Positions 10,178 through 64,000 of a DNA stretch of 64,000 nucleotides are shown here, piece by piece. Within the stretch, counting starts at the first letter, position 1; each line of letters opens with the position of its first letter. The stretch is from assembly GCA_000091205.1 (NCBI GenBank), contig AP006488.2; one strand, 5' to 3'. The DNA comes from Cyanidioschyzon merolae (Eukaryota). Both the position numbers and the translations under genes were made by a program. The notes beneath the pieces were generated by a model. It saw only the letters and a program-made list of their open reading frames with translations. It was not told the DNA's origin and did not search any database.

Positions 10178-10900
10178 ACAGAAAAGGAACAGAAACGACC
10201 CATTAACTAGCATCTGGATAAAATTTCATTTCCCTCGCTATGGTAACCGTTGAACGAGAGAAAATCTTTCCATATTGCCGAGAGTTCAGCTTACAGGCAA
10301 AGGGTCCTGCGAGCCGAACGAGTCTCCCAGGCTCGTGGTTCATGTCCCTCTCTCTCAGTGGCAGGTGCTTCAATGCGATCTGAGCAACTCGTCTGCAACG
10401 CAATTCATTCTGGGACTGGGAGCGGGTATGCTCCGTCTAGGTGTCGCCCTGCTTTGCGGGAGTGTCCTAGCACACCGCTTCGCGCTGTCGCAGGAAGTAG
10501 GTCCGTTAGCGCAGCTTGCAGGCTCCCGGAATTATTATATACGCCATTCCCGTGTTACGCGAACCACGCCTCGAGCCGACGTCCGCTGTCGTATGGCAAC
10601 GCCGTTCTATCTGCGTGCTGCATCAGTACCAGAGGTGGGAGCGCAATGCCGGATGTTCACGGCGTGCATTCGGCGCACAATAGAACGTCTGAAGCGACCA
10701 GTATATATCCGGGAACAGGTCATGGAACTTGGAGGTAGGGTGCAGCATGATACACGCTTTGCTGAAAGCCATTATCCATCTTGCAGTCTGGGATCCATGG
10801 TCCATGGAAACGTTTCGTCATCGAAGAAAACGGCGCCGCCAGCGACGCTTCCGAACGAAGCACCCATAACGTTCCTCAATTTTCCAATAAAGTCCATAAA
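10178..10900 (+). repeat. ~730-bp interspersed repeat 'R', copy 1 (non-coding; paired with copy at 31983-32720)
   Basis: Collinear 65-75% nucleotide identity with 31983-32720. Shared blocks include gaaaaggaacagaaacgacc…aactagca, attctgggact, ggtgtcgccct, cgcttygcgctgtcgc, gtatggcaacgccgttct, gcagcatgat…gctttygctgaa, ggatccat. Confidence 0.6.
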
Positions 10901-11571
10901 AATCCGATATCGTCTATACCCAATCATCCAAAGCGCCACCATCGTGCAGTGCGCGGGAAAGCGAGTCCCAAAGTGCATGTGCCGGCGGGTGCTGGCCTCC
11001 GATCTGTTCGTGTGCGTGCGGTGCGCCTCCGCAGCAGCACACCATGCAAGGCGGTGCCATCGAGTGTCCAATTTCGGCACCGGGCGGTGTCGTGTTCACC
11101 ATTTCGCGCGCCGTGCGTGTCGTGCAGTCGACTTCCGTACGACAGACGCTGCCTGACGAAACATACTGCACACGCACGATTTCGGTGACTGTCTGTCCTC
11201 CACGCGGTATTGCGTGGAATCGATGCCTAGATCTCCAGGGGTGTGCGTCGAGGAGCAGAGGACCGGAACCTACCCGGTGACTTTGAGTGCGTTGGACTGC
11301 GTGCTGCTAGGTGCACATTTCGCTGAAGAGGAGCGTAGACGGGCGCTGCGTTCCGCGGTTGGAGAGCTTGAGACCAGTCTTGCGCCGTGAGGCGAGTTGG
11401 TCTCTATCTGGGTAGAAGAGACTCTGGGGCGTGAGCTTTTAAGGGGAAGCTCTACGAAGGTGGCGCGCACTTGTGCGGAACGAGCGCATGCGCGACTTGA
11501 AGCAGTCTCGCTGAACTGGGTCTCAACGACAACGATAGCTCTTTGTTTATCAGTTGTTGTGATTTGGAAGA

Positions 11572-13500
11572 ATGGCGAGTACTGGACCTGATTATTTGTT
11601 GTTTCTCGATATTCAGCGACTATTTGGGGATCGGGGTGCTTCTGAAGTCTTCCGTCTCGCGTGGCTGGTTGGTGATCGGCGCGCACGCGTTCTCGATGCC
11701 AAGCAGCTGTACGTGCGACCGGTCTCAGCTGCACTACGTCAGCGTCTGCGATCGCTCTTGCAGCCTTCGGATGCCGGGGCGGAGCGTATTGTAGAGGCAC
11801 TCGAGGCGGAGAGTGACAGGCGAGGCGTATATCCTGTACTCATCAGTAACGATATTGCAGTCATGTATAACTTAGTCGATGCAATCGAGGAGCTGGCCGC
11901 TTATTCGCGTCAAGCTTTTGTACAGTATGATCGTCGATTTGGGACCGTGGTCGCTAGCAAGGGAATTCTGATGCAGCTTGTACACGACTTGGAACAGCAG
12001 CTGCTCCAACAGGCGGCAGTAGGACCCGAATCCGAGACGGTCATTCGGAACTCGCTCGATTTGGTATTAGGGGACTACTACATATGTCCAGTGCGCAGCG
12101 CCGTCGGTGCAGATGCGTTTGCAGCCTGCCGAGAAATGCATACACGATTCGCCCAAGACGGAGGCATGTTTATCCCGGAACACTTTTCTTGGAATAGTGG
12201 ACTCATGCGATCGATGCCGCGAAACGGATACGCCTCGGGTACATTGCCATACATTGGAGCGGATATGATGGTGGGTGGCAGCTCATGGCCCGGAGCATTC
12301 ATGCCTGCACAAAGCGTGGCCATGGGCATTCCTGCGCAAATGCCACCCGTGAGGAGCCACCGAGATGCGCTTGGCATCGGAACGCCATTTGCCGGTGGCG
12401 AATTGCTGGGGACAGCAAGTACCGCTCGAGCACCACAGTCAGTGGTTATCCCGTCCTCGACCGCTAGTGCGGCAAGCACTGTAGCACCGGCAACACCGGT
12501 AGGCAGCGTCGTGCGCCTACGAGGCTTGCCATGGTCTGCGACTACGCGTGACGTTGCTGAATGGATTCGACAGCCGCCCGCGAAGGCCACGATGGGTGCA
12601 GACTCGTCCTTATTGGAGGATTTCATTCGCCGCCCGCTGCAGGTTCTCCCCGGAGGCATTGTGTTCGTCTACAATCACCAGGGGCGCAAAACTGGCGAGG
12701 TCTTCGTTCAGTTTGCCTCTCCAGAAGATGCCTCACGATGCCTCCACAAGCACGAGGATCGCATGGGCCATCGCTATATTGAAGTTTTCCTGTCATCACA
12801 CCAGGACATGTGGAATCTACTCAGCCGCTACGAGGCAAAAAGGGCCGCCCTCGGTCTAGGAGCAGCCGGGAGCCCCGCAGCAACCAGTGGGGCACAAGTA
12901 CGAAACGGTAACCGCACGGATCGTGAGCTGGGGTTGAGCCCAGCTAACGTATCCCAGCAAGCGAGCGCGGTAGCGATGGGTGTCCCGCTTCGTCAACCAG
13001 GCGACTGGACGCCAAGTTCGGCGACATTCCGGCCCGAGATGGTGTCGCACACACCACCGGAAGGGCTTGCGCCTGTCGTCCAGGCTGGAACTTCAGCATC
13101 TACTCGTGAAGGCCCCATGGACCTGATGTCGGCGACACAGTCTCCTTGTCTGCGTCTTTCGGGAGTCGATGCCACCGTCACAGAGCGTGACGTGCATCGT
13201 TTCATAGCCCCGTTCCAGCTGGATACCAGCCAAGGTGCAAGCATACTCGCTTGCTTCGCTGATCATGGGGTCAGAGTGCCTCCGGGGACCACAATCCCTC
13301 CGGTCTTCACGGTGCGCAACAGCACCGGTCAACCGAGTGGTGAATTCACCCTCGTTTTTCAAAACGTATCGGAGCGAGATCGAGCCCTTTGCAAGTCGGG
13401 GCAATTGCTGGGATCCCGTCCAGTCAAACTCTCCAGCATTTCTTGTTTCGAACTCGCTGCCGCCTTGGGTATACTTGGAATCACTAGAGCTGGGGTGTAA
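11572..13500 (+). CDS. hnRNP F/H / GRSF-like RNA-binding protein with three quasi-RRM domains
   Basis: VVRLRGLPWSATTRDVAEWI…GEVFVQFASPEDASRCLHKHEDRMGHRYIEVFLSS matches the qRRM signature of hnRNP H/F (RGLPW…RYIEVF.SS). There is a second RRM-like module near the C-terminus (CLRLSGVDATVTERDVHRFIAPF…EFTLVFQNVSERDRALCKSGQLLGSRPVKL). Confidence 0.75.
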   Translation: MASTGPDYLLFLDIQRLFGDRGASEVFRLAWLVGDRRARVLDAKQLYVRPVSAALRQRLRSLLQPSDAGAERIVEALEAESDRRGVYPVLISNDIAVMYNLVDAIEELAAYSRQAFVQYDRRFGTVVASKGILMQLVHDLEQQLLQQAAVGPESETVIRNSLDLVLGDYYICPVRSAVGADAFAACREMHTRFAQDGGMFIPEHFSWNSGLMRSMPRNGYASGTLPYIGADMMVGGSSWPGAFMPAQSVAMGIPAQMPPVRSHRDALGIGTPFAGGELLGTASTARAPQSVVIPSSTASAASTVAPATPVGSVVRLRGLPWSATTRDVAEWIRQPPAKATMGADSSLLEDFIRRPLQVLPGGIVFVYNHQGRKTGEVFVQFASPEDASRCLHKHEDRMGHRYIEVFLSSHQDMWNLLSRYEAKRAALGLGAAGSPAATSGAQVRNGNRTDRELGLSPANVSQQASAVAMGVPLRQPGDWTPSSATFRPEMVSHTPPEGLAPVVQAGTSASTREGPMDLMSATQSPCLRLSGVDATVTERDVHRFIAPFQLDTSQGASILACFADHGVRVPPGTTIPPVFTVRNSTGQPSGEFTLVFQNVSERDRALCKSGQLLGSRPVKLSSISCFELAAALGILGITRAGV

Positions 13501-16949: not shown

Positions 16950-18236
16950 CTATTCAATACGCCCGGGGTTTGCGTTACGACTCTTGTGCGCATCGCTCGT
17001 CGCCGATAACCGCTCTGGAAGCTGGTCCACATGAAATGGGAACATTTCGCCCTCTGCTATCGCTCGAATGCCTTCACGATAGCTGGGGTACCACAGATCT
17101 GCCGAGCCGCCCAGCAGGACTGCCTTTGCCGTGTGGTTGCGGATGCGCTTCTGGAGGCGGGATTCCGAAGAAATCGCGCTTAACTGACCCGTTCTGGACT
17201 GCGCTGCATAGTCCTCAACCTGAGCACGCGTCGCAGGTTCATTGTCCACCAGGTTGAAGACGCCCTTTGCTCTCTGTGCAACACCGCTGAGCAGGAGACG
17301 CGCAGCGTCGGCAACGTGTATTCGATTCACCAGCGTATCACGCGGTCGCCGCGATCCTTGCCTAGTTTCGCTGTGCTCGTGGTAGGCCAACATCGTGTCC
17401 AGGACACTGCGACGTGTCCATCCACGCTTGCCTCTTAGCGATGGTGGAATCGGACCGTATACGGCCCCAAGTCGGAAGCGGGCGAGTCGCACTTCCAGTC
17501 GATGTGCGAGCTCTCCTGCTCGCTGTTCAGCCTGCCAACATGCCGCTGCTTTCTCTGTGGATAAGTCGAGTGGAGCGCTTTCGTCGATCCAGGACTCTCC
17601 TCCAGGCGCATACAGACTCGTGCTCGACAGGAGACCTATCCACCGTAACGAGGGGAGGAGTCCGTCTCCGACTACGTGCTCCAACCAGGAAATCCATTCG
17701 CCGTGCACAAGTACGTGTGTGATCAATTTCAGGTGATCTGGCTCAACACATTGTGAAAGCGACAGGCAAACTCGATCTTGGAGCAGCAGGCGATAGTCAG
17801 CGACCTCCGAACCCTGACGATAACACGCAACGACGCTTTGTGGCAAGGCTGGAGCCGAGTCTTCCGCGCCTGAATGTGGCTGCGGGCTTGTTTCACAGTG
17901 CTTTCCGTGCACCCAAAGGCAAGCCACTGCAGTGGTAACATAGCCCAGAGGCACAATGAGTAGGCTTGTTGGCGAGGTCTCGCGCTCAGTGACGAGCCTC
18001 CACGAGCTGAGACGGGACGCGAGCCCAGGACGTTGCAATCTACTGAGCGCTCTCAAGGGAAAGCGGTGACCTGGTAAAGTCCTCGTCGGCTGCTGCACGA
18101 AAAGAAGAGCAGGGTATGGTCTACCACGCCTTTGAACAGTGGTTTTCGCGGTTTGCATCAGTACGGCAAACGTCGAGCGTTCTTGGGAACGAGTTGTTGC
18201 TGCGAGCGTATACACCCTTGACAGAATAAAGCGCAA
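16950..18236 (-). CDS. SDR39U1/YfcH-like NAD-dependent epimerase family protein (possibly degenerate)
   Basis: The C-terminal two-thirds is collinear with YfcH-type epimerases (…RLGAVYGPIPP…RIHVADAARLLLSGVAQRAKGVFNLVDNEPATRAQVEDYAAQ… vs WIHIDDMV…GPFNMVSP.PVRN.EFA.AL). The N-terminal GxxGxxG Rossmann motif is not recognisable (LLIVPLGYVTTAVA). Confidence 0.35.
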   Translation of the reverse strand: MRFILSRVYTLAATTRSQERSTFAVLMQTAKTTVQRRGRPYPALLFVQQPTRTLPGHRFPLRALSRLQRPGLASRLSSWRLVTERETSPTSLLIVPLGYVTTAVACLWVHGKHCETSPQPHSGAEDSAPALPQSVVACYRQGSEVADYRLLLQDRVCLSLSQCVEPDHLKLITHVLVHGEWISWLEHVVGDGLLPSLRWIGLLSSTSLYAPGGESWIDESAPLDLSTEKAAACWQAEQRAGELAHRLEVRLARFRLGAVYGPIPPSLRGKRGWTRRSVLDTMLAYHEHSETRQGSRRPRDTLVNRIHVADAARLLLSGVAQRAKGVFNLVDNEPATRAQVEDYAAQSRTGQLSAISSESRLQKRIRNHTAKAVLLGGSADLWYPSYREGIRAIAEGEMFPFHVDQLPERLSATSDAHKSRNANPGRIE

Positions 18237-20179: not shown

Positions 20180-22504
20180 CTAGGGAGCAACATTCAGCAG
20201 GAGACGCCACAGCGCATAGTTCGGCAGACCAATGAGCCCGGTCTCGCGGCGAATGCATTCAAGCATCTCGTAAAGCCGCTCTCGCGGGGCCTCCCGATCC
20301 GTAGAAACCGCTCGTTGTGAAAGCACGGCAAGAACAGTGGCCAGCACACGATAGCTTCCAGCGCTTGTGAAATAGACAGCGCTTCCTCGCTGCAGCACCG
20401 CTTCTGCTGTCGCCACAGCTTTCAAAAGCGCACCTTGATCTGTACCCGTTTCTGCGGCAAGTGACCCGTCATCGGGCCATTCTGCTGTCATCAAGAGGCG
20501 ATTGCTGGGCAATGGCACCAGAAGCAGACGAATGCCCAGGCGCGTCGCACTTACTTGGAGCTGTTCCCGCTCCGCTGGGTTTGTACAGTGGACACGTTCG
20601 TGTGGTAGAAAAACGATCACGAGTCCGAGTGACCGGTCGGTAGACGCGGCTACGAGTGAAACGAGCGTCGTTTGGAGCTGTGTCGCAGAGAGGAAGGGGC
20701 CCACAAGCACTGCAGGATTCACCGATAAGCTGATCAAGGTTGGCGTTGTTGCCGTACTCGGCGGCGAAACGATATCCTCGCATACCATCGTGTGATTCAG
20801 ACAAGTGGTTTCATCGCACAAACGTCGAAATCGTGTCGGTCGATGTTCGTACTGAATAGCGTCTTCTGCTTCCGATTCTATTGCGTAGATATATTCCACG
20901 TCATCCCACGGCGGTCGGACAATGCTGAGTTCCCAGGTATCGGGCTCCGAGGCCGCACGCTGTAAGGCCACAAGACCTGGTTGCGTCCATAGCCCCAGTT
21001 GATACACGTCGCCGGTGGCGTAGACTTTCTTGATCAAATGCTCGGGTTGAGCAGGAGCCACTGGCCTTTCGATATGCACGCGCAACTTGATCAACGTAAA
21101 AGCATCTTGCACTGCTTCAATGTAGTCGTGAACTCGAACCGGTTTGGAAGCACTCGAACGCGAGACCGAGCGAACTCGAGGACGAAAAGCATCCAACCAT
21201 GCGTTATCCGTTGAGGAGTGTCGCAGTATCGATTCAGCTGTGGTGATAGAGGCTGCGCCTGTGCGTTGCACGCTGTATGCAGGCACTTCAAATATTACTC
21301 GTGTTGCGCGTCGATCACCTAAACGGTCGTCGAGAAAGAAATATACGTAGCGAATGGATTCGCTGGTGAGTGCGCCCGTCGAAAACAGCGCTACAGTCAG
21401 GTAAAATGTGCGTCGCTGAACAGAGAATTCCAGCTTACGAGCGACGTTCAGATTCCAGCTTCCCAACTCCATCATGTTGCCTGTCATGCAAAGACTCAAG
21501 TGATTCGCAGCGGCTTCCATTTGTTGTAGCACGCTGTCGTCACACTGAACGGCAAAATGAATGCATACATGTCCGGGTGATGAGGTTCTCTCGGCAACAG
21601 CGGTATCCGTTTGTTGCGCTAGCACGCTGCTCGCCGGCATGTGTGCGGCTTTCTCTAGGAAAGGTGCTGCTGAGTGGTGTGCACCACCAGCACGCAACAC
21701 GGAAGCGCTGCTGGTGCTCTCTAGGAAAGGTGATGCTGAGTCGTGTACACCACCAGCATGCAACACGGAAGCGCTGCTGCTGCTGCTGTTGTTGTTGTTG
21801 TTGTCCGTCGCAGCAACGCGAGTATCGCATTCCGTTCGTGTGAGGGAAGGCAGCGGTTCCGCCTCCGCCTTTGGCGATGGGGTGACTCGACTCGCTGGCG
21901 GCGTCCGTAGCCTTACGTCCAAGCGAGGGTGCACGGTGTGCGCACTCATAGAGCACTGCTTCGACGCCAGCGCTGCCTCGATATGCTCTTTCTGTGACCG
22001 GGTTTGCAAGCGAGGACGCAGTGCAGAAGCGCCTGGCAAGACGTCCAGCTGGAGCACCAGCGCTGGCGCGAAGTATGTGCTTCTCTTGGGCAAAAACTGG
22101 CTAGAGACGGACTGCCATATCGACGCATAGCGGTTCTCAAGCGCAGCCAACCGAGCAAGCTTCCAGTTCGAGGCGGTTCCTTGGAAACAGTTTGGAACCT
22201 CAAGCGCTGTGAGTCGAAGCGTGCTCACTGCTTCAGGGTCCCTGGCAAGGAATCCAACACTCGGTACTCTCGCTTGTATAAGCCGCTCAAGTTCCAATGA
22301 ACCAGACGGCACTTGCCCTTCGTCCGGGCGTTTCAAGCTCTCTGACGCCGGTGTCAGGTTCCAGACTGCGTCGCGAGGCGATAGCCTCCGCTCGGAGACA
22401 CGGCAGGAAAGCCGTTGTTCCCATTCCAGTTTATGTGCTGAGAGGTCCGTACAGTCCAAGAAGACTCTCGTCCCGTAGTGGAACGGAGGTGCTGCAGTAG
22501 CCAT
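20180..22504 (-). CDS. Laforin-like protein: two CBM20-like starch-binding modules + C-terminal dual-specificity-phosphatase-like domain with Thr in place of catalytic Cys
   Basis: There are two segments with the CBM20 topology and key aromatics (VCIHFAVQCDD…MELGSWNL…FYLTVALFS…IRYVYFFLD; IKLRVHIERPV…YQLGLWTQ…DTWELSIVRPPWDDVEYIYAIE). The C-terminus has WPDDG(general-acid-like)…x30…AVYFTSAGSYRVLATVLAVL, which aligns to DSP VLVHCxAGxSRSxTxxxAYLM with C->T and H->F. The N-terminal 250 aa are low-complexity (poly-N/S, internal duplication). Confidence 0.45.
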   Translation of the reverse strand: MATAAPPFHYGTRVFLDCTDLSAHKLEWEQRLSCRVSERRLSPRDAVWNLTPASESLKRPDEGQVPSGSLELERLIQARVPSVGFLARDPEAVSTLRLTALEVPNCFQGTASNWKLARLAALENRYASIWQSVSSQFLPKRSTYFAPALVLQLDVLPGASALRPRLQTRSQKEHIEAALASKQCSMSAHTVHPRLDVRLRTPPASRVTPSPKAEAEPLPSLTRTECDTRVAATDNNNNNSSSSSASVLHAGGVHDSASPFLESTSSASVLRAGGAHHSAAPFLEKAAHMPASSVLAQQTDTAVAERTSSPGHVCIHFAVQCDDSVLQQMEAAANHLSLCMTGNMMELGSWNLNVARKLEFSVQRRTFYLTVALFSTGALTSESIRYVYFFLDDRLGDRRATRVIFEVPAYSVQRTGAASITTAESILRHSSTDNAWLDAFRPRVRSVSRSSASKPVRVHDYIEAVQDAFTLIKLRVHIERPVAPAQPEHLIKKVYATGDVYQLGLWTQPGLVALQRAASEPDTWELSIVRPPWDDVEYIYAIESEAEDAIQYEHRPTRFRRLCDETTCLNHTMVCEDIVSPPSTATTPTLISLSVNPAVLVGPFLSATQLQTTLVSLVAASTDRSLGLVIVFLPHERVHCTNPAEREQLQVSATRLGIRLLLVPLPSNRLLMTAEWPDDGSLAAETGTDQGALLKAVATAEAVLQRGSAVYFTSAGSYRVLATVLAVLSQRAVSTDREAPRERLYEMLECIRRETGLIGLPNYALWRLLLNVAP

Positions 22505-22526: not shown

Positions 22527-22836
22527 GCCCTTCTCGAGCGCAGTACACTGCGACCTTTTCTGAACCGCTGTTGTTACCAGCTTCAACAGCCTTAGCCTCT
22601 AAGGTTTGGCTTTGGCGACCCAGTGCAGTGCCCTTCTCGAGCGCAGTACACTGCGACCTTTTCTGAACCGCTGTTGTTACCAGCTTCAACAGCCTTAGCC
22701 TCTAAGGTTTGGCTTTGGCGACCCAGTGCAGTGCCCTTCTCGAGCGCAGTACACTGCGACCTTTTCTGAACCGCTGTTGTTACCAGCTTCAACAGCCGTA
22801 GCCTCTAAGGTTTGGCTTTGGCGATCCAGTGCAGCG
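22527..22836. repeat. 103-bp tandem repeat x3 in the divergent intergenic region between the laforin-like gene and EDC4
   Basis: The unit gcccttctcgagcgcagtacactgcgaccttttctgaaccgctgttgttaccagcttcaacagccttagcctctaaggtttggctttggcgacccagtgcagt recurs at 22527, 22630 and 22733. It produces three overlapping near-identical artefactual ORFs (MKLVTTAVQKRSQCTALEKG…). Confidence 0.9.
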
Positions 22837-22952: not shown

Positions 22953-25694
22953 TTGTGGGACCTCTCTAATATGGAGACACATATAATTAGCGACGAGGAT
23001 GAAAGACTCGCTAGACAGCGAAAAATGCTCTTCGAAAAGTTCGGGATAGAAGCGGACACTCTGGGGGACGCGGCACCGTCGGCGGTACCTCCGAACAAAA
23101 GCGCTGAATACACGGAAGCGGACCGCGTTGGTGTACTAGGCAAGACGTCTTGCGGACAGGCGCAAGGTCAGAGGGCGATTTCACCCCCCAGCACTCCCAG
23201 TGTGGTTCAAATTGCAGAGGAAAGTCAGGATGCAGACCTTCATAACGCAACGCCCGACCCCCAGCGAGACTACGGACTGCGTCTGCTTGGAAGCAGGTTT
23301 CATTATCGCGCAAGCTTGCACGAACAGGCTCGAGCATCACGGGAACTGTTCGCGGTTACACCAGTGACGGCGTACGCGTCGCCGCTGGTGGAGAGCTCAG
23401 CGCACCGCATTGCTGTGCACGACCACTGGATCGCTTATGCGGTGAAAAACCATATCCGGTTGCTCGATAGGCTCCAAATCCAGCGCGCCCTCCTGAAAGG
23501 CCACGAGGGCCCTGTCGAGGAGCTCTCCCACGCACCGCAGTGCCCACAGCTCCTGCTCTCTAGTGCAGCCGATGGTAGTGTAATCTTCTGGCGGCTCGAG
23601 GGTTGGGATGGAACGTCGCGATCGCCGAGCGAGCACCTACAGTGGCGCTTTCAGCTCTCGAACCGACGGAGTTCCCGTATTGCGCTCTCCCCAGATGGAC
23701 GCTGGATAGCCTTCACAGAGGACGCTCGGGTACACGTGCTTCCCGTCACCGCTGATGGCGATGTGGAAAGCAGGCAGCACACAGTGATTCCAACAACGCA
23801 TGAGGTTCGTGATATTGCTTTCGTTGCCAAGGCAGCTGCAGCTGGTTGGTTGCTTGTTTTAGCTAGTGCTCATGGAATGGTACATATCGCTGAACCGGAG
23901 CACGGCACGATCGTGGGGGAGTTCTGCGCTCACAGTGGGGCGCCAGTGGAACGTGTCCTCAGCCTCGCGCCGCAGGTGCTCGTCACTGCAACATCGTGTT
24001 GTACAGAGCTGTGGTATTGGCGACTCGTTGGGCTCTGGGCTCCGCCGCAGAGCGGCAGCGTACAGCTCCTCGCGCGCTGCTCTTTTCATGAATATGCGAG
24101 CTTGGGGCCGCTAGCGACCGATCCCGAGGGAGAATTCCTCTTTCTCGCGAATCACGAGACCAGGCAACTTTTTGTTCTGCACCATGCGAGTGGAACCTTT
24201 ATCCCGGATTATTTGGTGCAGGTGCCTCTGCGGTATTCGATTGCCAGCTTCTGTGCGACTCGTTCTGTTCGTCGAGAACGTGACCTGGATGAGAAGTCTG
24301 GACTACCACAGTTGCGTGAAAACGTCTTTCTTGACCTGTGGTGCATGCATGAAAAGTGTATTCAGGGGTATCATGTACGTCGCGAACACTTGGCGCCAGC
24401 AGGAGAAGCACCCCCGGCCGAGTTGTCGCTCGAGAGCTCCAATCATGACGAGAACTATAATGATCTTGATGACCCTGTTCATGATGATGATGATGATCGT
24501 CATCGTGCTGTTGGTGCTGCTGGTGACGATGATGATCATGGTGATGCTGCCGGAAACCGGGTGCACGGGCGACCTGTGCTGGACGTTTCAGCTTCGCAGC
24601 CACTCGAGGGGTTGATGTCGACGTCGCCGCCGGTGCTGGTGACCCACACCCATACCCTGTACGAGGCTTTTCGGAAGATCGCTCCGCAACTGAAGCAGCG
24701 AAGCTCAAGCTCCAGAAAGCACTCGGCCATTGGCGTGGGCAGCGCTGCCTCAAGCTCTCCGAGTCCAAATGCTGGCGACGCTGCCTCAAGTTTGCCAGTC
24801 GATGTTCGAACACTTGCTCCAGAGAGCAATGGTGAAGCTGGCGCTGCTACGCCAAAGCGCGGAGACTTTCCAGATCAGGCGACGAGCGCTGGAATGCCTT
24901 TGTTCACGGAGAAGCGCATTCTGGAACTTGAAGCGCGACTGACGCGTATAGAGCAGCTCCTGCATGAACTCATGGGCACGGTGAACCACACCAGGTCGGA
25001 GACAGCCTCGACGATGCACGGTCTTCTCCAACAGATTGCCAAAGAGCACCTCGTGCCGGCTCTGATGCGCACCAGTGCCGAGACGGCAACATCGCTCTCT
25101 CGAGCGCTCGACGAGGCCATACGGGTTCGCTTCAAGCCGGTTACCGAACAGCTGGAACAAGCGTTACAGCGGACACTGCAATGGCCCACGTCAGGACCTG
25201 TGTCTTCTGCTGGAATGACGGCGACGACACTGGTGCCCACCGGGTACACGGCACCGACACCGACACCACGAGAGCAGATCCTGCGATGGCTGCATCAACA
25301 ACCGATGCCGGACGAGGATCGAGCGTTTCACGCAGCGCTCAATCTAAGTGATCTGGAGACGTTGGTCTGGCTCTGCAAGCAGTGCTCTCCGGAGCTTGTC
25401 TGCGAGAAGCTCTCCCAGCCTGTGCTCCTCTCTCTGGTCCAGCAGTTAGGTTTCGATTTGCGGACCCATCTCGAATGCAAGTTATCGTATTTAGAGGAAG
25501 CGGTGCCGCTGATTCAACCGAAAGATCCGATTATCGCTCGGCATATGGAACCAACCATGCGTCAGCTTGTGCATAATCTAGATGAACAGGTTTTACATGC
25601 TGGTGAAGAGGTTGCACCTGCGCTTCGGACGCGGGCTCGTTTGCTGCGCAAGGTCGCCACGCTGTTGCTCCTTTCACCATCGCCAGCGAGTTAA
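22953..25694 (+). CDS. EDC4: Enhancer of mRNA decapping 4 (EDC4/Ge-1/VARICOSE)-like: N-terminal WD40, acidic/Ser-rich linker, C-terminal helical domain
   Basis: The N-terminal region has WD-repeat character. The C-terminus has LSQPVLLSLVQQLGFDLRTHLECKLSYLEEAVPLIQPKDPIIARHMEPTMRQLV, which closely resembles the conserved EDC4 C-terminal block (…LSQPVLLSLIQQL…KLSYLEEAV…DP.I..HM…). A coiled-coil segment precedes it. Confidence 0.6.
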   Translation: MWDLSNMETHIISDEDERLARQRKMLFEKFGIEADTLGDAAPSAVPPNKSAEYTEADRVGVLGKTSCGQAQGQRAISPPSTPSVVQIAEESQDADLHNATPDPQRDYGLRLLGSRFHYRASLHEQARASRELFAVTPVTAYASPLVESSAHRIAVHDHWIAYAVKNHIRLLDRLQIQRALLKGHEGPVEELSHAPQCPQLLLSSAADGSVIFWRLEGWDGTSRSPSEHLQWRFQLSNRRSSRIALSPDGRWIAFTEDARVHVLPVTADGDVESRQHTVIPTTHEVRDIAFVAKAAAAGWLLVLASAHGMVHIAEPEHGTIVGEFCAHSGAPVERVLSLAPQVLVTATSCCTELWYWRLVGLWAPPQSGSVQLLARCSFHEYASLGPLATDPEGEFLFLANHETRQLFVLHHASGTFIPDYLVQVPLRYSIASFCATRSVRRERDLDEKSGLPQLRENVFLDLWCMHEKCIQGYHVRREHLAPAGEAPPAELSLESSNHDENYNDLDDPVHDDDDDRHRAVGAAGDDDDHGDAAGNRVHGRPVLDVSASQPLEGLMSTSPPVLVTHTHTLYEAFRKIAPQLKQRSSSSRKHSAIGVGSAASSSPSPNAGDAASSLPVDVRTLAPESNGEAGAATPKRGDFPDQATSAGMPLFTEKRILELEARLTRIEQLLHELMGTVNHTRSETASTMHGLLQQIAKEHLVPALMRTSAETATSLSRALDEAIRVRFKPVTEQLEQALQRTLQWPTSGPVSSAGMTATTLVPTGYTAPTPTPREQILRWLHQQPMPDEDRAFHAALNLSDLETLVWLCKQCSPELVCEKLSQPVLLSLVQQLGFDLRTHLECKLSYLEEAVPLIQPKDPIIARHMEPTMRQLVHNLDEQVLHAGEEVAPALRTRARLLRKVATLLLLSPSPAS

Positions 25695-33743: not shown

Positions 33744-34502
33744 ATGAAGGAGATCTGTCCGGAGTTCGATGAACGGAAGACAGAGTTCACCGCTGAAAAC
33801 CGGGAGACGTACTTGAAGAGTATCCTCAATTTCAAACGTCTCAAAGTAAGCAAGAAAAAGAAATTCACTGGGATGATCGAAACCGATGGAGTATCTATAT
33901 GTGTACACGATCGGCGGTTGAAGGTGGATCGTCCAGTCCTGCCTTCAGCCTCGCCCGTGACGAAGCATGAAGGTGAGAAGGAGGCGGATCCTGCGATGCA
34001 GGAGTTGGAGGATAACGACCTTGGCGTTGACGTGGCGAAGCATGAAGAAAAGGAGAAGGCTGTTCCTGTGACTCAGGAGATAGAGCATAACGACCTTGTC
34101 GTTGACGTGACGAAGGATGAAGAAAAGAAAGAGGCGGATCCTGTGATGCAGGAGATGGAGGGGAACGACCTTGTCGTAGGCGCGGCGAATCATGAAGATG
34201 AGAAGGAAGCGAATCCTACCACGCAGAAAGCGCATGAGAACGACTTTGTAGTTGGCGCGGACCCCGGAAGCACAAATATCATAACCATCGCTGCTCCCAA
34301 GCTCGCGGAAGATGGTATTGACGGGAACTTGCGTCAGAAATATATGCGTCTTCTGCGGCTCTCGAGAGCGAGATACTATCGACAATCGGGAATCATGAAT
34401 GCGAGGAAGAAAATCGTTACGTGGAATGTAGGAATGAAAGAGCACCTGGAAGCTCTGAGTGAGGTGACGAGCCGAGGAGCGGACTTTCGAGCTTTTCGGT
34501 GA
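33744..34502 (+). pseudogene. Fanzor/TnpB-like nuclease, middle segment with RuvC-I motif and 25-aa tandem duplications
   Basis: GADPGSTNIITIAAPK is preceded by four 25-aa acidic repeats (…KHEGEKEADPAMQELEDNDLGVDVA / KHEEKEKAVPVTQEIEHNDLVVDVT / …). It ends in a stop that is frame-shifted relative to the next segment. Confidence 0.5.
33956..34255. repeat. 75-bp tandem repeat x4 inside the Fanzor-like ORF
   Basis: The period is 75 (cgtgacgaagcatgaag… at 33956, 34031, 34106, 34181). It encodes 25-aa repeats ending in NDLVV/NDFVV. Confidence 0.85.
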
Positions 34503-52780: not shown

Positions 52781-54718
52781 CTAGGATTCGCCGGAATCGT
52801 CGCGTGACAACAACTCGGTCACAAGACGTTGCGTCAGGGCCGGATCCAGACGACCATCGCCGCGTTTCATCACCTGTCCGACAAAAAACCCTGCAAGCTT
52901 GGTTTTCCCTTGCCTGTACGCCTGCACATTTTCGGGATGTTCACGCATGACTTGTCGAATGAGATCCGCAATTACGGATTCACTTCGGATCTGTGTCTTG
53001 CCTTGCTTTTCAACGAGGTCACGCACCGAACTGCAGGGCTCCTCCATGAGCTCTGGGAGGATTTCCTTGGCGATCTTCCCGCTAATCGTCCCGTCCTCAA
53101 TCAGCAGAATGAGTTCTGCGAGCACGCTCGGCGTCAGTGCTGTCTCCTGGATAGAGCGCGCCTGCGGTTTCTGTTTGATCAGGGCGGCGATGTCGCCGGT
53201 GATCCAGTTTGCAGCCGCTTTCGCTCGATCGATCAGCATGCGAGGATCCAGACCCTCGACAGCAAGATGTCCGACGGTGTCCTCAAAAAAGAAAGCTGTC
53301 GCTGGTTCTGCAGTGAGCACTCCTGCATCATAAGGTGTAAGGCCTAATGCTGACGTATAACGCAAGCGTTTCTCTGCAGGTAGCTCTGGCAGACTCGCTT
53401 TCCAAGCATCAACCTGAGCTTGCTCTAGAAGAATCGGCGGAATGTCAGGTTCCGGAAAATAACGGTAGTCAGATGCACCTTCCTTGATACGCAACACCTT
53501 CGTAGCCTGTTCACGCTCATCCCATAGACGCGTCTCCTGGCGAACCGTTCCATTGCCATCAAGCATGGCCGCTTGCCGAAGAATTTCGTAATCGACTGCT
53601 CGCTCGATTGCATTGAAGGAGTTCAGGTTTTTCAGCTCTACCTTGGTCCCGAGTGCATCATCCGACCTGACACCAGACAATCCACGAGGTCTAATCGAGA
53701 CGTTCACGTCGACACGAAGCGAGCCGTCCTGCATATTGCAGTCGCTGATCGCTGCGTATCGTAGGACGCGCTGCAGCTCCTCGCCGAAGGCGGCCGCTTC
53801 AGCCCCGGACTCCATATCCGGCCCTGTAACGATCTCCAACAACGGAACGCCAGCTCGATTGTGATCTATCAGAGAGTATTTTGCTTCGTGTGCCCCAGGG
53901 TCCTGACCCGGGATTTCATCTGGCTCCTCTTCTGCAGTTTGTGAATGGAACATTTTCGCCGAATCCTCCTCCATATGTGCACGACGGATATGTACGCGCT
54001 TGCCCGAGGACGGCAGCTCCAGGTATCCGTTCTCGGCGATGGGCATATCGTACTGGCTTATTTGGTAGTTTTTCGGCGTGTCGGCGTAGAAGTAGTTTTT
54101 CCGATCGAACTTGGTCCTCAGCGCTATCCTGCAGTGCAGAGCCAGGCCGGCTTTGACAGCCAGTTCGACCACGTTCTGGTTCAGCGCCGGTAGCGTTCCA
54201 GGCTGGCCGGTGCATACAGGGCATATATGGGTGTTCGGCCCCGGCGCTTGTTCGCAACTGCAACCACAGTACGCTTTCGTCCTTGTAGCGAGTTGAACGT
54301 GTACTTCGACACCAACGGTTGCAGCGTACCGTTCTAAAACGCGATCGATTGCCTCGGCGCCCTTACGTCGACGACCAGCTGCACCGGACTTTGGACGTTG
54401 CCCTGTGGCGCTGGCTAATAGGGAAGCGGCCGCACGCTCTGAATGAGGGCGTGCTGCTGCTGCTGCTGCCGGCCCGAGAACGTTCTCGTTCGGACACACC
54501 TTCAGCAGCGCTCGATATCCAACGAACGACCAGAGTGCCCGGCAAGGTTGCACAAATCCAGTGCGTCTATGGCGCGCTGCACTGATCCAGTCCATCTGAG
54601 AAGCGTTCGTCGTGCGGTGCTCAGTTTGCAACGCGAAGCCAGTGTACCGGAAGGCGTTGCGAATGAATGGAGCGCATTGCGGTTGCGCATTGCACGCGGC
54701 ACGCCTCGCGATACCCAT
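52781..54718 (-). CDS. GATB: Glutamyl-tRNA(Gln) amidotransferase subunit B (GatB/PET112), probable mitochondrial form with ~130-aa N-terminal extension
   Basis: VGVEVHVQLATRTKAYCGCS…ICPVCTGQPGTLP…KFDRKNYFYADTPKNYQISQYD…VRIRRAHMEEDSAKM… is collinear with GatB through to the C-terminal YqeY-like domain. The N-terminus is Arg/Ala-rich. Confidence 0.85.
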   Translation of the reverse strand: MGIARRAACNAQPQCAPFIRNAFRYTGFALQTEHRTTNASQMDWISAARHRRTGFVQPCRALWSFVGYRALLKVCPNENVLGPAAAAAARPHSERAAASLLASATGQRPKSGAAGRRRKGAEAIDRVLERYAATVGVEVHVQLATRTKAYCGCSCEQAPGPNTHICPVCTGQPGTLPALNQNVVELAVKAGLALHCRIALRTKFDRKNYFYADTPKNYQISQYDMPIAENGYLELPSSGKRVHIRRAHMEEDSAKMFHSQTAEEEPDEIPGQDPGAHEAKYSLIDHNRAGVPLLEIVTGPDMESGAEAAAFGEELQRVLRYAAISDCNMQDGSLRVDVNVSIRPRGLSGVRSDDALGTKVELKNLNSFNAIERAVDYEILRQAAMLDGNGTVRQETRLWDEREQATKVLRIKEGASDYRYFPEPDIPPILLEQAQVDAWKASLPELPAEKRLRYTSALGLTPYDAGVLTAEPATAFFFEDTVGHLAVEGLDPRMLIDRAKAAANWITGDIAALIKQKPQARSIQETALTPSVLAELILLIEDGTISGKIAKEILPELMEEPCSSVRDLVEKQGKTQIRSESVIADLIRQVMREHPENVQAYRQGKTKLAGFFVGQVMKRGDGRLDPALTQRLVTELLSRDDSGES

Positions 54719-54796
54719 GAGGATGCAAACGGTAGGGGGAAGTGCTGGAACTTTTCCCTCAGTAGGGATGTTTATGACTTTTTGAATCGAAGTATG

Positions 54797-55150
54797 GGAA
54801 TGCTATGTGCAGTGCAAAGATCCGGGCTCATAGATTCGTAGATCGTTGAATGCTATGTGCAGTGCAAAGATCCGGGCTCATAGATTCGTAGATCGTTGAA
54901 TGCTATGTGCAGTGCAAAGATCCGGGCTCATAGATTCGTAGATCGTTGAATGCTATGTGCAGTGCAAAGATCCGGGCTCATAGATTCGTAGATGGTTGAA
55001 TGCTATGTGCAGTGCAAAGATCCGGGCTCATAGATTCGTAGATGGTTGAATGCTATGTGCAGTGCAAAGATCCGGGCTCATAGATTCTTAGATGGTTGAA
55101 TGCTATGTGCAGTGCAAAGATCCGGGCTCATAGATTCTTAGATGGTTCAA
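54797..55150. repeat. 50-bp tandem repeat x7 immediately 5' of GatB
   Basis: The unit tgaatgctatgtgcagtgcaaagatccgggctcatagattcgtagatcgt has period exactly 50. Later copies carry gatcgt->gatggt and cgtag->cttag variants. Confidence 0.9.
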
Positions 55151-57730
55151 GGATTTACGATTGTGTCTGCGGACAAGCGCTTTCGACGCGTTGCTGCTGG
55201 CAGCGTTGACCTGGTCGGCATCAACATGCTTGGCGACACCCTCGAACAAGCGCTGGTAAAACTTCCGAACGCATGATCCAAGTGAATGCGTACATGGCTT
55301 TGCGGCGCTCTGTTCCTTCGATATACGGTCCTGGAATCAGGTATTCTTCCAGTTTTCGATTATTCCGTTTCACGAGGACTCGTGAGGTACAGGTATTCGC
55401 GACGCGGGATGGACGAGGAAACATATTCAGCATGGTCTTTTGAGCGCTATTTCACGAGCTTGTTCAGAAATCTTCTCGACATTCCCTTTTTGCATCAGCG
55501 ATCCAGTTTGGGAGAATTTCGTGCGTCTCTCTGTGGTGATCGATGAAACCGCATTTCACATGAGCAGCTGGATATCTCTAAAAGGATACGAGCCCAGAGA
55601 TTTCCGTGGCTTTTGATTGTGCGGAAACGGGTCCTGGGTACGGGCTTGAATCATCCCAGCGATCATATTAAGTGACGCGTCCGATACGATTTGCATAAAG
55701 GACGCGGATACGGATGAACGAATTCCGACTTGCTTTCCAGTTCGACAGTTCTTTTCGAAAATTCTTCCATGATAGGTAGCATCTCGTTTTAAAATGCTGT
55801 ATTGAAGCGAATAGCATGCGGCTTCGCGTGCCTTGCAGAGAGCACTTTTCGAAAGGCTAGCCCCGAACAAGCTGGTGTTCGAGGGGTACAGCCCCAGGCG
55901 CTGCTCCTGGAGATTTCATCAAGGCGCGTCTTCTGTGGCCGTCATGGGCATCAGCCAAACGATGCAGCAAGCGTCCACGCGTCGTAGAGCATCCAATGGA
56001 GGTTAAGGATAGGTGAACACATCGGTATACCTGCATTCAGTCACGGGTTATCAATACGAGGCGTGCGCCGAACTTGTATACGTAGACGACGACATTGCCT
56101 GGGAAAACGCAGATCGCAACGAATGTCCTTTTCCCGTGATATGCATCGGCAATAGTTGAGAATTCCTAAAATCGACACGTGAATCTTTGCACCAACAGCT
56201 TCCGACTGCTCGTTACAGACCGAGATGAGAACTGGAGACCGCTGTATCTAAATTATGAGGTACGAGAGAAAAATGAAAAAGCTGAAGACAAAGAACGACA
56301 TGGATGATTTTGATCACTGCAGGAAGATGCTCAAACATCACTGTATCCGTATGAGCCAAGATGCGCTGTTCCCATTTCATTCTGAAGTCGGTTTAGCATT
56401 GCGGAGAGCGCATGAGACACGCTCTATATGTGGATGATCGCTCGATCAAGAGCAGGGTCTTTTATGAAAAACTTGCACCATCTTTGTGGAATACCTTTGC
56501 ACGCGAATTGTGCAGAGCATTTTGTTTTGCGTTCATCGGTATGATTCCGCTCTTCCTCGATGGAACACCATTTCAGAATATTCAGATCCTGAGCGCATGT
56601 CCGGAGATTTTATTATATTCTTCTGCAGACCAGAAGCTGTTGTACTTCAAAGGCTTTCGGAGAGATTCCGAACCCTTCAAACGAGCACGGGACGGCGCCG
56701 ACTGCCGTTCGTCTGCGAATACCCATGCAAAACGCAACCCGAGAAACGCGCCAACAACCTGCACGCGACGGAACCGCAGTTCGACGCCGCAGCGAACTGC
56801 ACCATCTCAAGGCAGTGCAGGCGAGCCCTGCTCTGAGCAAATCAAACCTGGAATCCCGAGCCGAAGCCCGCATTGGTATAGCAAAGCCGCTCTGTCTCCG
56901 GTTTGCATCCGCAGCGGCGCTATTGGTGCTACCGCAGACGCTCACGGCGGGCTCGTCGCACGATAGCGTGTAAAACATAACCACTGCATCCGAGCCAAGT
57001 ACATGGAGTCTAAATTGAATATAGGTGGAACAGTGGATGCTTTTCTAATCGCTGATATTCAGGGCCCAATCGGGGATGCCTGGTCCATGTAAACTGTCCG
57101 TCAAGCGAGGAATCCCACCGACAAGCCGCATAATAAGAGGCGACAATCGAGCTGCACTGCCACTGAACGTACGAAAGTGCGCTAAAAACTCCAGTGCGCA
57201 TGTCGTAGCCTTCAAAGCCGCTTGATGCGTCGATTCTGCGGGAATCCGCCGGGTCACCGCGCGCTTTCAGGACTCGGGACACGTATGACCCGTACCAGTC
57301 GATGGGTTGCTCATCAGCGCTCATCCACATCGGCCTAGAATAGACAAGTGTACCTTGACTACGCTCAGCACAACACGGCTTGCCTGAAAAAGTCAGAAGC
57401 GGCACTGGTCCTGGTACGTGCTCGCTGTGTGCTCTTGAGCGACCACCAGTCATGCAACTGCGCAAAGTATGCGTACGGAGCGCAGCGAATCCATTCAGCT
57501 TGTGCTGTAAACTAGATGCGTCCAGAGCTTCGCGCCACACGAAGCCTTTTCCGGGCCAAAACCAGCAACGATGCCATCTCGTGTTGCATGCGATAAACTG
57601 GGGCGTGCTGCTTCACAGCGCGTACAAATCGAGTTCGTGTATACGCCGGTCTACCTGCAAGCGAACAGCAGCTGACCAAGCACGCCCTACCCTGTGCCGT
57701 ACGGGATTCGCATTATTCGCAGGCATTCGG

Positions 57731-59224
57731 CTATTGCTCGAGGATAAATTCCTGAACAGGGCGTCCAAGGTGGCGCGCTATGGTACCGTTACTGTCTCGC
57801 GCCGGTCGATGCACCAAAACCTGATGCTGTCCTCTATTCAGACTTGTCACCGCAACATTCCCGTGCTGACTAGAGGACGTACCTGAGGTCGTGGGCATCG
57901 CGAAGCGCACAGTCTCCGCGTTCTGGACGATGACGTTCCCGGCGATGTCGCCGCTCCACGATTCCGTCTTGTTGCCGGCAGCGGCACCCGTACCGTCCGC
58001 ATGGAGACTTAGCTGCACGAGTAGCAACGGACGACGCTCGATTTTCGCTCGTCCAAGCGTTACAGAGCGACTTCGACCCGAGCGGGCGTCCACCGCAAGG
58101 AGTTCATCGCCAGCTCGCAGCTCGCAGAGATACTTGGTCGAGCCATCGGGGACAAGGATGTACGAATGGACGGCACCGGCATTCACGCGAAAAGGCCTAC
58201 TAGCAACGTATGGGTTCTGAGCAGCTTCGCTGAGCACCAGGGCCAGAGTGGAGGCGCTGGAGCCCACCAGAAACCCTTCGTGAAACGCCAGCAGCGAACA
58301 GGTGTCAAGACAAACACGCTCGCCAACACCAGCTTCGCGCACGTCCACAACCACAGCTGGATCCAATACGAGACTGTTTTCGAGCCGTTGATAACGATTG
58401 CGTAGACTAGCGAAGGATTCAACGGCGCTGGCGCTCCCTGTGGCCAGAATAACGCCATGGACACCGCGCTCTAAGCTTGCAAGCTGTGCCTCAGCCATGC
58501 CCGTCGTCGACACGACAACGAGTATACTCGTTTGTCTCTGATACGCTACGCTGACCAGATTTTCAACGGGTATGAGTTCCCAGTCTTTCGTTTCAACCAT
58601 GACAATAGAGCGGCAAGGCAGGTTTTCTTCCAGAGCGTGCACATCTTCCGCGGACTGCAGTTCGTAAAATACTGCGTATGTAGCACCGGTGCGCTGCTCC
58701 CGCACCAATCGTGGACAGGTTCCGTGTGCTACAATATATCGTGCATCAGTGGTTGGCTCTTTCCACTCTCCCCAGGTTGTCGCATGCTCGTGTACCAGAA
58801 CGGGAAAAGCGAGGTCCACTGCACGCGCGTATGCCTCTTGAGTGGCAGGCATAACCCAGAATGAACGCGAACTTGACGATAGTGCGTGATCCGCGCGACG
58901 CAAAGCGGCTCCGTCTGCGTAGGTCTCTGCAACCTCCTGGATGAACTGAAGGGAACAGGCACCCAGAGAGTGCCTCTGTGAGCGTTCGACAGTCCGTCGA
59001 CAGCGCCCGACGTGCCGGTGTCGCGGGCCCAGCAGCCTTGATCCAGTGTCTGGGTTCCTTGTGAACTTCCGTGGATGCGATTCTACATAAAATCCTGTTC
59101 GAGTCGGAGCGTGTGCTCTCAGAGAGCGAGCTGTCGACCAAAGAGCGGTTGCAGCGGCGCCACCGCTCCACGAACACCTTGAGAAGCTCGGCGGACACAA
59201 CCAGGAAACTGCTTGCGACGACAT
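57731..59224 (-). CDS. 3-dehydroquinate synthase type II (archaeal-type DHQS, aroB' / PF01959 family) with ~100-aa N-terminal extension
   Basis: [104 protein letters not shown]…[10 protein letters not shown] is collinear with Methanocaldococcus-type DHQS II (…RVCIDTCSLM..GEGMLIGS…[27 protein letters not shown]…KYLSELKAGDKVLIVD…GRVKIERRPLVLIEA…ILQNAETIRL). Confidence 0.7.
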   Translation of the reverse strand: [497 protein letters not shown]

Positions 59225-60077
59225 GCCAAGAAACTAGGTCACAAGTCCGTACCTTGACCTTTTTCCACCTCGCAATAAGGGAAGAGCACCCACCCGTCTC
59301 ACAGAGAGGCAAACGAGCTTGCTATCCCTTATTGTTTTACGCGTATGAAGGGTATATCAGCTGATGCTCCAGCGTACTGGTAAACGCAGCGGTACAGCTA
59401 CCACCGCCACCAGGAACGTTTTGCACCTGTTCAAGAACTCTTTTCCTCGACGAGGCAAGCTGTGTTGCGAAACTGGTGTTGCTGGTGCTGCGCTCTTGGA
59501 GCAATAAAGCGGTGGACGCTGCTGACTCGGGCGTGTTGCTGTTCGGCTCCGGGCTGGAAGGACGCCAGCGGGAAAGCACCTCCGGTGGAGTGCTGGGCAA
59601 CGCAACCGCACTTGTACGCAGTCACTTTCAAGGGAGAGTCTGCTCTCGGTGTGTACCGCTTGGGCTCGCTACACCGCCTTTCTAGAGTGCACGCAAGCGT
59701 CGTCGTCAGCAACGGTACTTGATCGGTGCTGAAAACGTTGCATCAGTGGTAGAGTGGCGCTCCCGTTGGCGCACTTCCGTGACTCTCACCTGAATACGCA
59801 CGTTTCTCTTTTTGAACACCAGGTCCGCGCAGTGGTATACACAAATCTCACTATACCTGATCCGAGTCGGCGGCAGCTGCGGTGGGGCAAGCCCTGCGGG
59901 TGACGGCACCAGGCGGCTTCTCCGACCACAACGTGTGCGCTGGGCGCTCTCGTCCAACGTTAGGCGAGCAAACGAGCACAAGGAGCCACCGAGGATCCAC
60001 CAGGATAGAATTCGCAACGAAGTTCACAGCGCTTCATTCTTACTCGTGAGTCGCAAGGCGCTCTCCACCCCAGCCAC

Positions 60078-63014: not shown

Positions 63015-63350
63015 ACGTATACACGGATACGTATACACGGATACGTATACACGGATACGTATACACGGATACGTATACACGGATACGTATACACGGATAC
63101 GTATACACGCATACGTATACACGGATAAGTATACACGGATACGTATACACGGATACGTATACACGGATAAGTATACACGGATACGTATACACGGATACGT
63201 ATACACGGATAAGTATACACGGATAAGTATACACGGATAAGTATACACGGATACGTATACACGGATACGTATACACGGATACGTATACACGGATAAGTAT
63301 ACACGGATACGTATACACGGATAAGTATACACGCATACGTACACACGGAT
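63015..63350. repeat. 14-bp tandem array (TACACGGATACGTA)n, ~24 copies with ACGGATAAGTATAC variants, ~215 bp 5' of the Rab1 start
   Basis: Visible as a perfect 14-nt periodicity over ~335 bp. Each unit contains the palindromes GTATAC and TACGTA. Confidence 0.9.
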
Positions 63351-64000
63351 ATGCATATATACACATCAAATGCCCACAGATCGAGAAGCGGCACAGGGGC
63401 GCTGTTGGAAACCGAAGAGAGCGCCTACCCATGGGCTATAGAGCGTGGCGTGCGCGATGACATGCTGCCGGCCTGCGACGGCATGCTGGTTGAGTTTCAT
63501 TGACAAGGTGGAATGTAGGAAAGCAACATTATATCCGAGAGGACGTATGGGTCATGGAACTTGACGGTGGCGTCATGAATGATATGCGCTTTCTCGAATG
63601 TCGATGTTGATCGTGCAATTTAGGATTCTTCGTGTGTGCACACGTTCAGTTCAGTAAACGACAACATAGATCGTTGGTGCAAACTCATCTGTAGAAGCAG
63701 CGATGGCGACGATCTTCTTCATGATGCGCGTACGGCGTATGCGATTCGACGTCAGTGCATCCGCGTGAATATCAAATGGAACGGGGCGCGATCACAGGGG
63801 CTCGCAGACGAGTCTTTGGGCACGGTATGCTTCCAGCGTCAATCATAAAGGACTTTGGGGTTTGCTTTTCCGCTTTCATGTATCCGGTTTTCGATAGGCT
63901 GGCCTTTGTTATTCCACCGGTGCTGCGCTCAGTAGTTGTGGGATGATGATAGCAATATTCAAGTCAAGATTTGGTAGTTTTCTGTTGTTTCATGCGCATG

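Follow-up and report, generated by a model that had tools for sequence, protein, structure and literature searches.

A probable plastid 3-dehydroquinate synthase II of archaeal type encoded in the nuclear genome of the red alga Cyanidioschyzon merolae

The archaeal AroB' enzymes (M. jannaschii MJ1249, H. salinarum OE1475F; EC 1.4.1.24) are the described reference point for 3-dehydroquinate synthase II (DHQS-II). In the tabulation of White (2004) given in PMC4162585, MJ0400 and MJ1249 of M. jannaschii, with nicotinamide adenine dinucleotide (NAD), convert aspartate semialdehyde and 6-deoxy-5-ketofructose 1-phosphate (DKFP) to 3-dehydroquinate (DHQ), and as far as that tabulation extends, NAD+-dependent conversion of 2-amino-3,7-dideoxy-D-threo-hept-6-ulosonate (ADH) to DHQ is demonstrated for archaeal enzymes only. 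A DHQS-II gene is present in the 64,000-nucleotide stretch of C. merolae contig AP006488.2 analyzed here (the window), where it forms an ATG-initiated open reading frame (ORF) of 497 aa on the minus strand (57731-59224). Its product shares with archaeal AroB' the PF01959 and DHQS_2nd regions, collinear over ~377 aa, and is 36-45% identical to archaeal members, all of whose invariant residues it keeps. The C. merolae gene differs from these in being nuclear, in encoding a 120-aa presequence and a species-specific loop, in standing outside any operon and in having a type I DHQS alongside; its activity is putative. We conclude that the gene probably belongs to an Archaeplastida-wide group of nuclear DHQS-II genes with a cleavable presequence, whose predicted product would be a plastid enzyme converting ADH to DHQ with NAD.

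DHQS-II sequences of plants and green algae (Corylus EVM0021283; Klebsormidium, Coccomyxa, Rosa, Fragaria) are orthologous to the C. merolae protein. They form one clade with the red algae (83-94% bootstrap), have the derived residues V439 and A483 in common with them, and carry extensions of transit-peptide character. Divergence within the clade is greatest in C. merolae and the Cyanidiales, with 30-35% identity to the aligned green sequences and, for C. merolae, a Pfam score of 272 bits, where the five sequences scanned from the green lineage gave 362-509 bits; the C. merolae protein also has a longer presequence and the extra loop. The GriH/BagC/FevH 3-amino-4-hydroxybenzoate (3,4-AHBA) synthases have a homologous fold and core motifs in common with it, and the NCBIfam BagC_FevH model detects the C. 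merolae ORF, but with 137 bits under a 750-bit cut-off, below every DHQS-II model, and with an alignment limited to residues 200-414. A BagC/FevH-type 3,4-AHBA synthase (136.7 bits) was rejected as an identity for the ORF on these grounds.

Type I DHQS (AroB; AT5G66120 and its C. merolae ortholog; a domain of AROM in fungi and protists) has the same nominal product and, in Archaeplastida, the same presumed compartment, but its fold and family are unrelated, its substrate is the 7-phosphate of 3-deoxy-D-arabino-heptulosonate (DAHP), its mechanism is another one and its affinity is beta/gamma-proteobacterial. The plastid 3-dehydroquinate synthase of C. merolae groups with beta/gamma-proteobacteria and with Arabidopsis AT5G66120, the type I enzyme (Huang & Gogarten, 2008; PMC2530860). 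Since that study lists the type I enzyme, C. merolae has its type I DHQS as a monofunctional protein and not within AROM; DHQS-II comes in addition to that enzyme and does not replace it. The contrast that the earlier note on this DNA drew with the AROM polypeptide of most eukaryotes is thus not applicable, as in C. merolae and plants alike the type I DHQS is a monofunctional enzyme with proteobacterial affinity (PMC2530860).

The C. merolae gene is already known at the database level, and hundreds of plant genomes carry annotated homologs. Over 497/497 residues, the ORF product is 100% identical to C. merolae 10D XP_005535817.1/BAM79531.1, which identifies the window as nuclear DNA of this red alga; the protein is named 'hypothetical protein, conserved' in GenBank and '3-dehydroquinate synthase' in UniRef. 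Literature searches found no mention of BAM79531, XP_005535817 or M1UPX7, and the searchable literature yielded no functional study of any eukaryotic DHQS-II, plant mentions being at annotation level only. Arabidopsis At3g28760 is presumably a plant member of the family. It is labeled '3-dehydroquinate synthase' in a miRNA-target table (PMC8045047). Searches on EC 1.4.1.24 and the DHQS-II family returned only metagenome or KEGG lists and a Corylus S-locus paper citing the annotation, in which the function of the 'DHQS II' gene (EVM0021283) is inferred from White (2004).

The value of the gene lies in the conservation across Archaeplastida of an archaeal-type DHQS-II that is apparently catalytically intact and bears a transit peptide, beside the type I enzyme, and in its persistence in an algal genome that is among the smallest. 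As a haploid alga with hardly any introns, in which genes can be replaced by targeting, C. merolae is a convenient organism for asking what DHQS-II does.

Family membership, conserved residues and integrity of the locus

The first Met is the only start that gives a complete DHQS-II domain, because an in-frame stop lies four codons 5' of it and the next Met, residue 125, falls within the conserved first strand, 'FWV'. A Pfam scan matched residues 174-497 to PF01959 (DHQS-II) with E=6.5e-81 and 272.3 bits versus a cut-off of 22.2 bits, and in the multiple alignment collinearity with the family reaches back to residue 121, giving the total of ~377 aa. The archaeal-type DHQS-II identity and the ~370 collinear residues proposed in the earlier note from the letters alone therefore stand, and the two sequence blocks that it quoted were found exactly, at residues 337-357 and 391-402. 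PF26558 and PF01959 are precomputed on close cluster members of the protein. At E<=0.01 the scan of the ORF gave PF01959 alone and no type I DHQ synthase domain, and a type I DHQS or AROM identity was rejected on that result. All six of the six NCBIfam DHQS-II models and the BagC_FevH model match the ORF, the DHQS-II equivalog models scoring best (181-239 bits versus 137 bits).

Conservation extends to individual residues. C. merolae keeps every one of the 34 alignment-wide invariant columns (34/34; alignment A1, 93 sequences), and its residue is identical at 69 of the 80 columns with >=90% conservation among 82 prokaryotic DHQS-II sequences. W215, I218, E221, N222, G254 and G257 are invariants of the alpha/beta domain. 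The beta-rich domain bears most of the family-invariant polar residues (R303, C305, D307, E333, R343, R346, N348, Y355, Y365, R392, K394, E396, R398, Q434, E437, T438, R484 and H485). By homology, that is by hidden Markov model match, collinearity and invariant residues, the ORF is a member of the DHQS-II family.

The AlphaFold2 (AF2) model, with a mean pLDDT of 77.8, predicts an alpha/beta domain of TIM-like type at residues 121-285 and, at 288-497, a beta-rich one; a PDB sequence search with the protein gave no match at E<=1, and there is no solved structure of the family. The two folded domains are mostly above 90 in pLDDT, with lower values in loops such as 411-423. Residues 1-88 are predicted to be disordered (pLDDT <50), and two helices of moderate confidence follow at 92-115. 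The loop insertion of C. merolae is absent from all other aligned homologs, even from the other Cyanidiales ortholog. Three longer homologs, P0199 (658 aa), P0213 (539 aa) and P0150 (512 aa), contain no additional Pfam domain, i.e., no Rosetta-stone fusion.

The archaeal look of the protein is the only point that would favor an assembly contaminant, a chimeric contig or a decaying pseudogene, an explanation to which we give next to no weight. The large ORFs around the gene encode eukaryotic proteins: APC4, GatB, an exonuclease with an HRDC domain, symplekin, MCM5, Sec23, CNOT1 and EDC4. Base composition and codon usage (GC 0.576; GC3 0.562; correlation of relative synonymous codon usage with the pooled neighbors, 0.73) lie among the values spanned by the 12 other large ORFs. 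On a metagenome contig from a related member of the Cyanidiales (L003, carrying ortholog P0134), APC4, DHQS-II, GatB, the exonuclease and Abhydrolase_2 follow in the same order and orientation, with the divergent APC4/DHQS-II arrangement, and near-identical DHQS-II copies occur on many independent metagenome and Logan contigs. The ORF is intact and its catalytic invariants are all kept. Contamination and chimerism of the DHQS-II region are excluded, and the gene is real and intact; the eukaryotic nuclear context, the neighbor-like composition and the sound contig that the earlier note had described at this locus are all borne out, the APC4-DHQS-II-GatB order being kept in a second Cyanidiales genome.

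Distribution and origin

Homolog sets comprised the best 120 matches listed for each of two queries, the C. merolae protein and the Chondrus protein. With the C. merolae query, the matches listed included the red algae Chondrus, Pyropia, Rhodochaete and MMETSP0011, and among the named prokaryotes listed the best matches, at 42-45% identity, were archaea of the Methanomassiliicoccales and Thermoplasmatota. With the Chondrus query, those listed included the green algae Klebsormidium, Coccomyxa, Trebouxia and Ostreobium, the moss or liverwort genera Sphagnum and Calypogeia, the conifer Cryptomeria and many angiosperms, on chromosome-scale contigs. All red-algal classes in the sample (Cyanidiales, Chondrus, Gracilaria, Pyropia, Rhodochaete, MMETSP0011) have orthologs, as do land plants, from Sphagnum through to Rosa. 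No cyanobacterial homolog was among the matches listed, and the top matches listed included neither glaucophytes nor algae with secondary plastids.

A neighbor-joining (NJ) tree of 162 non-redundant sequences and 328 columns, which is distance-based and takes its prokaryotes from the best matches of the two red-algal queries, recovered the Cyanidiales pair with 100% bootstrap support, all red algae with 80% (80-90% across runs) and the green lineage with 100%. Red and green sequences grouped without any sampled prokaryote at 91.5%. Support for this grouping was 83-94% under other trimming, with gamma-corrected distances or with Cyanidiales removed; the one collapse, to 33%, came when no red algae other than Cyanidiales were included and is an expected long-branch effect. 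V439 and A483 (C. merolae numbering) are fixed in 80 of 80 Archaeplastida sequences and rare in prokaryotes. Only three columns, all conservative, consistently split Archaeplastida from prokaryotes: 439 (I to V), 483 (G to A) and residue 145, which is V, I or L in prokaryotes and F in Archaeplastida, C. merolae itself having His.

Phylogeny and synteny identify DHQS-II as an ancient, vertically inherited Archaeplastida gene of prokaryotic origin, and one not obviously cyanobacterial, because no cyanobacterial match was among those listed. The gene would have entered once from a prokaryote before the red/green split, the closest sampled relatives being archaea of the Thermoplasmatota/Methanomassiliicoccales type, and would have been inherited vertically since. 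The synteny is kept between two Cyanidiales whose DHQS-II proteins are just 54% identical. Chondrus crispus and another florideophyte have a conserved neighborhood of their own, made up of SURF1, Peptidase_S26, EAP30, DUF3007 and DHQS-II. In the eukaryotic loci examined, neither aldolase nor shikimate genes are among the neighbors of DHQS-II.

That C. merolae, or the Cyanidiales, recently received the gene from an archaeon of hot springs could be read from the archaeal identity of the best-scoring named prokaryotic matches listed and from the 33% support obtained with Cyanidiales as the only red algae. Cyanidiales also live among archaea of the Methanomassiliicoccales/Thermoplasmatota type. 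Such a transfer is nonetheless very improbable: Cyanidiales join the other red algae at 80-85% in the three NJ runs that include them, red algae join the green lineage, V439 and A483 are present in Cyanidiales as in other Archaeplastida, codon usage is fully ameliorated, and the gene order is common to two Cyanidiales with only 54% identity in this protein. The suggestion in the earlier note that the gene was a lineage-specific horizontal acquisition does not survive the phylogeny, which places the protein in a broad, vertically inherited eukaryotic clade spanning red algae, green algae and land plants, an outcome that the note itself had named as refuting; horizontal acquisition is plausible only as one ancient event before the red/green split.

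One further sequence bears on the distribution in red algae. P0217, a 339-aa 'DHQS II' from a JGI metagenome, branches within the red-algal clade beside Rhodochaete in the NJ tree and probably comes from a red-algal contig in that metagenome.

Proposed function and compartment

The nearest archaeal relatives among the matches listed, P0105 and P0022, lie in aro operons that encode, in this order, a DeoC-type aldolase (the ADH synthase, ADHS), DHQS-II, 3-dehydroquinase (DHQase)/shikimate dehydrogenase (SDH), shikimate kinase, EPSPS and chorismate synthase, with the aldolase gene directly adjoining that of DHQS-II; the archaeal ADHS was located at L001:7202-7996. The operon of P0148 encodes DHQS-II, DHQase, SDH and shikimate kinase. 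Because every archaeal invariant residue is kept in C. merolae, the same chemistry as in the archaeal enzymes is most likely, and functional equivalence to AroB', for which this conservation is the argument, would follow. The presequence would be cleaved to leave a mature enzyme that starts near residue 90-121 and consists of the TIM-like alpha/beta and beta-rich domains. This enzyme is predicted to carry out NAD+-dependent oxidative deamination of ADH, or of a very similar amino-keto acid, and then an intramolecular aldol cyclization to DHQ, which would feed the plastid shikimate pathway alongside the canonical type I DHQS.

Several observations weigh against this proposal. The C. merolae protein and all tested Archaeplastida members score under the NCBIfam equivalog cut-offs, the top match of the C. 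merolae protein, NF002627, reaching 238.7 bits versus 392. This shortfall is weak counter-evidence to DHQS-II function; operon-embedded archaeal controls also fall below (P0022, 364 bits; P0105, 391.7 bits), so the cut-offs are too narrow to discriminate and were rejected as a functional test. We know of no ADHS (aroA') partner or DKFP source demonstrated in C. merolae or any plant, and no search was made; a PF01791 gene was not among the 17 largest window ORFs scanned. W8 and F14 are present in the C. merolae N-terminus, but the early Phe motif seen in the transit peptides of other red algae is not. The Zybailov supplements on the Arabidopsis chloroplast proteome include the type I enzyme AT5G66120 and do not include AT3G28760. 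The phylogeny that carries the Archaeplastida-wide reading is of the distance-based kind and is sampled in prokaryotes as described above. Two DHQ synthases kept in so reduced a genome should not be redundant, and the substrate or product of DHQS-II may differ from that of the archaeal enzymes.

The last of these points makes a neofunctionalized DHQS-II homolog a serious rival, since the keeping of both enzymes by so small a genome argues for non-redundant roles. The cyclase chemistry would then act on another substrate or yield another product, for example by forming a GriH-like aminohydroxybenzoate or by salvaging or repairing a deoxy-keto sugar acid, and would not provide a second entry into the shikimate pathway. 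Apart from the coexisting canonical type I DHQS, this rival draws on the lack of a known partner aldolase (none was searched for in the proteome), on the scores under the equivalog cut-offs, on the presence of non-DHQ enzymes in the DHQS-II family, one of whose models, BagC/FevH, matches the ORF at 137 bits, and on a review of the green-lineage shikimate pathway in which DHQS is treated as a single-copy type I gene without a word of a type II paralog (PMC3608921). It is opposed by the retention of all invariants common to the operon-embedded archaeal DHQS-II proteins, by the clear lead of the DHQS-II models over the AHBA-synthase model, and by the small number and conservative nature of the columns that separate Archaeplastida from prokaryotes. 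On balance we regard neofunctionalization as rather unlikely, and ADH-to-DHQ conversion as the probable activity.

We advance only tentatively, as an idea more doubtful than not, that Archaeplastida keep a functional plastid DHQS-II for something that the type I enzyme cannot do. If so, the enzyme might open a second, DAHP-independent shikimate entry from aspartate semialdehyde and a deoxy-keto sugar, the latter coming, e.g., from methylglyoxal or 5'-deoxyadenosine salvage, or it might perform a new cyclization reaction on another plastid metabolite. Either would be a conserved step in the aromatic metabolism of plants and algae that has gone unrecognized.

The N-terminal extension of C. merolae DHQS-II matches red-algal transit peptides in character, being basic, hydroxylated, acid-poor and unstructured (S+T 22%, R+K 15%, D+E 6%, net charge +11; rich in Ser, Thr and Ala). 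The earlier note had described a Ser/Arg-rich extension of ~100 residues suggestive of organellar targeting; the extension is genuine and has targeting-peptide character, but its length is 120 aa. The extension of P0134, the other Cyanidiales ortholog, is 123 aa long and alike in charge, and has no sequence similarity to that of C. merolae, as expected of transit peptides. N-terminal extensions of 35-115 aa are found in nearly all Archaeplastida orthologs. Those of other red algae (35-80 aa) open with a rhodophyte-type 'AF' start in Pyropia, MMETSP0011, Rhodochaete and florideophytes (MAFGF, MAAFAS, MMSAFVS, MELAFS), and plant orthologs have Ser/Thr-rich, acid-poor N-termini of 50-80 aa. Judging from these N-termini, C. 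merolae DHQS-II is likely plastid-targeted.

The same enzyme might instead reside in another compartment, with a mitochondrial or dual presequence or with an extension that stays uncleaved, so that it would not act in the plastid. The Arg-rich character of the extension, its unusual length relative to the 35-80 aa of other red algae, the missing N-proximal Phe motif, the helices predicted at residues 92-115 and the absence of AT3G28760 from the chloroplast proteome supplement are consistent with this. The plastid-type motif that opens other red-algal orthologs, the composition of the plant N-termini and the plastid localization of type I DHQS argue against it. The downstream shikimate enzymes and the supply of aspartate semialdehyde are also plastidial in Archaeplastida, which counts further against a site outside the plastid. 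We consider another compartment improbable and retain the plastid as the likely site.

Features of the gene and the rest of the window

Coordinates of the gene and its parts are collected in Table 1.

Table 1. Features of the DHQS-II locus in the window.
Feature	Coordinates	Strand	Basis
Complete DHQS-II gene, 497 codons plus stop, single exon	57731..59224	-	Pfam match and identity to XP_005535817.1
N-terminal extension, residues 1-120; presumed organelle (plastid) targeting peptide plus short helical linker 92-115	58865..59224	-	Composition, AF2 model
N-terminal alpha/beta TIM-barrel-like domain, residues 121-285, starting at the FWV strand	58370..58864	-	Alignment, AF2 model
C-terminal beta-rich domain, residues 286-497 (Pfam DHQS_2nd region)	57734..58369	-	Alignment, AF2 model
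Signature block, residues 337-357	58154..58216	-	Alignment
Signature block, residues 391-402	58019..58054	-	Alignment
C. merolae-specific loop insertion, about 12-17 residues within ~407-427	57944..58006	-	Alignment; low model confidence
Intergenic region between DHQS-II and divergent APC4, 853 bp; presumed bidirectional promoter	59225..60077	.	ORF positions; inferred

On the other side of the gene, the ~3-kb interval between GatB and DHQS-II (54719-57730) contains only short ORFs and measures ~1 kb in contig L003. It includes a tandem repeat of 50 bp in 7 copies (54798-55147; 99% matches), located 80 bp upstream of the start codon of GatB. The latter gene (Glu-tRNA(Gln) amidotransferase subunit B; 52781-54718, minus strand) encodes ~133 aa before the GatB_N domain, and this long N-terminal extension suggests organelle targeting there too.

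tRNA and Rfam scans of the window gave no matches. Four ORFs of 293-642 aa had no Pfam match at E<=0.001: 11572-13500 (+), 16950-18236 (-), 8105-9037 (+) and 10275-11156 (+). Two further intergenic tandem arrays were observed, one of 103 bp in 3 copies (22527-22834; 99% matches) between the divergent ORFs 20180-22504 (-) and 22953-25694 (+), and one of 14 bp in 24 copies (63015-63351; 95% matches) near the window end. An in-frame repeat of 75 bp in 3.5 copies (33956-34217; 79% matches) lies in ORF 33744-34502 (+), which is without a Pfam match and is located just upstream of MCM5. The strongest GC skew of the window, +0.195, is in the 34-36 kb bin.

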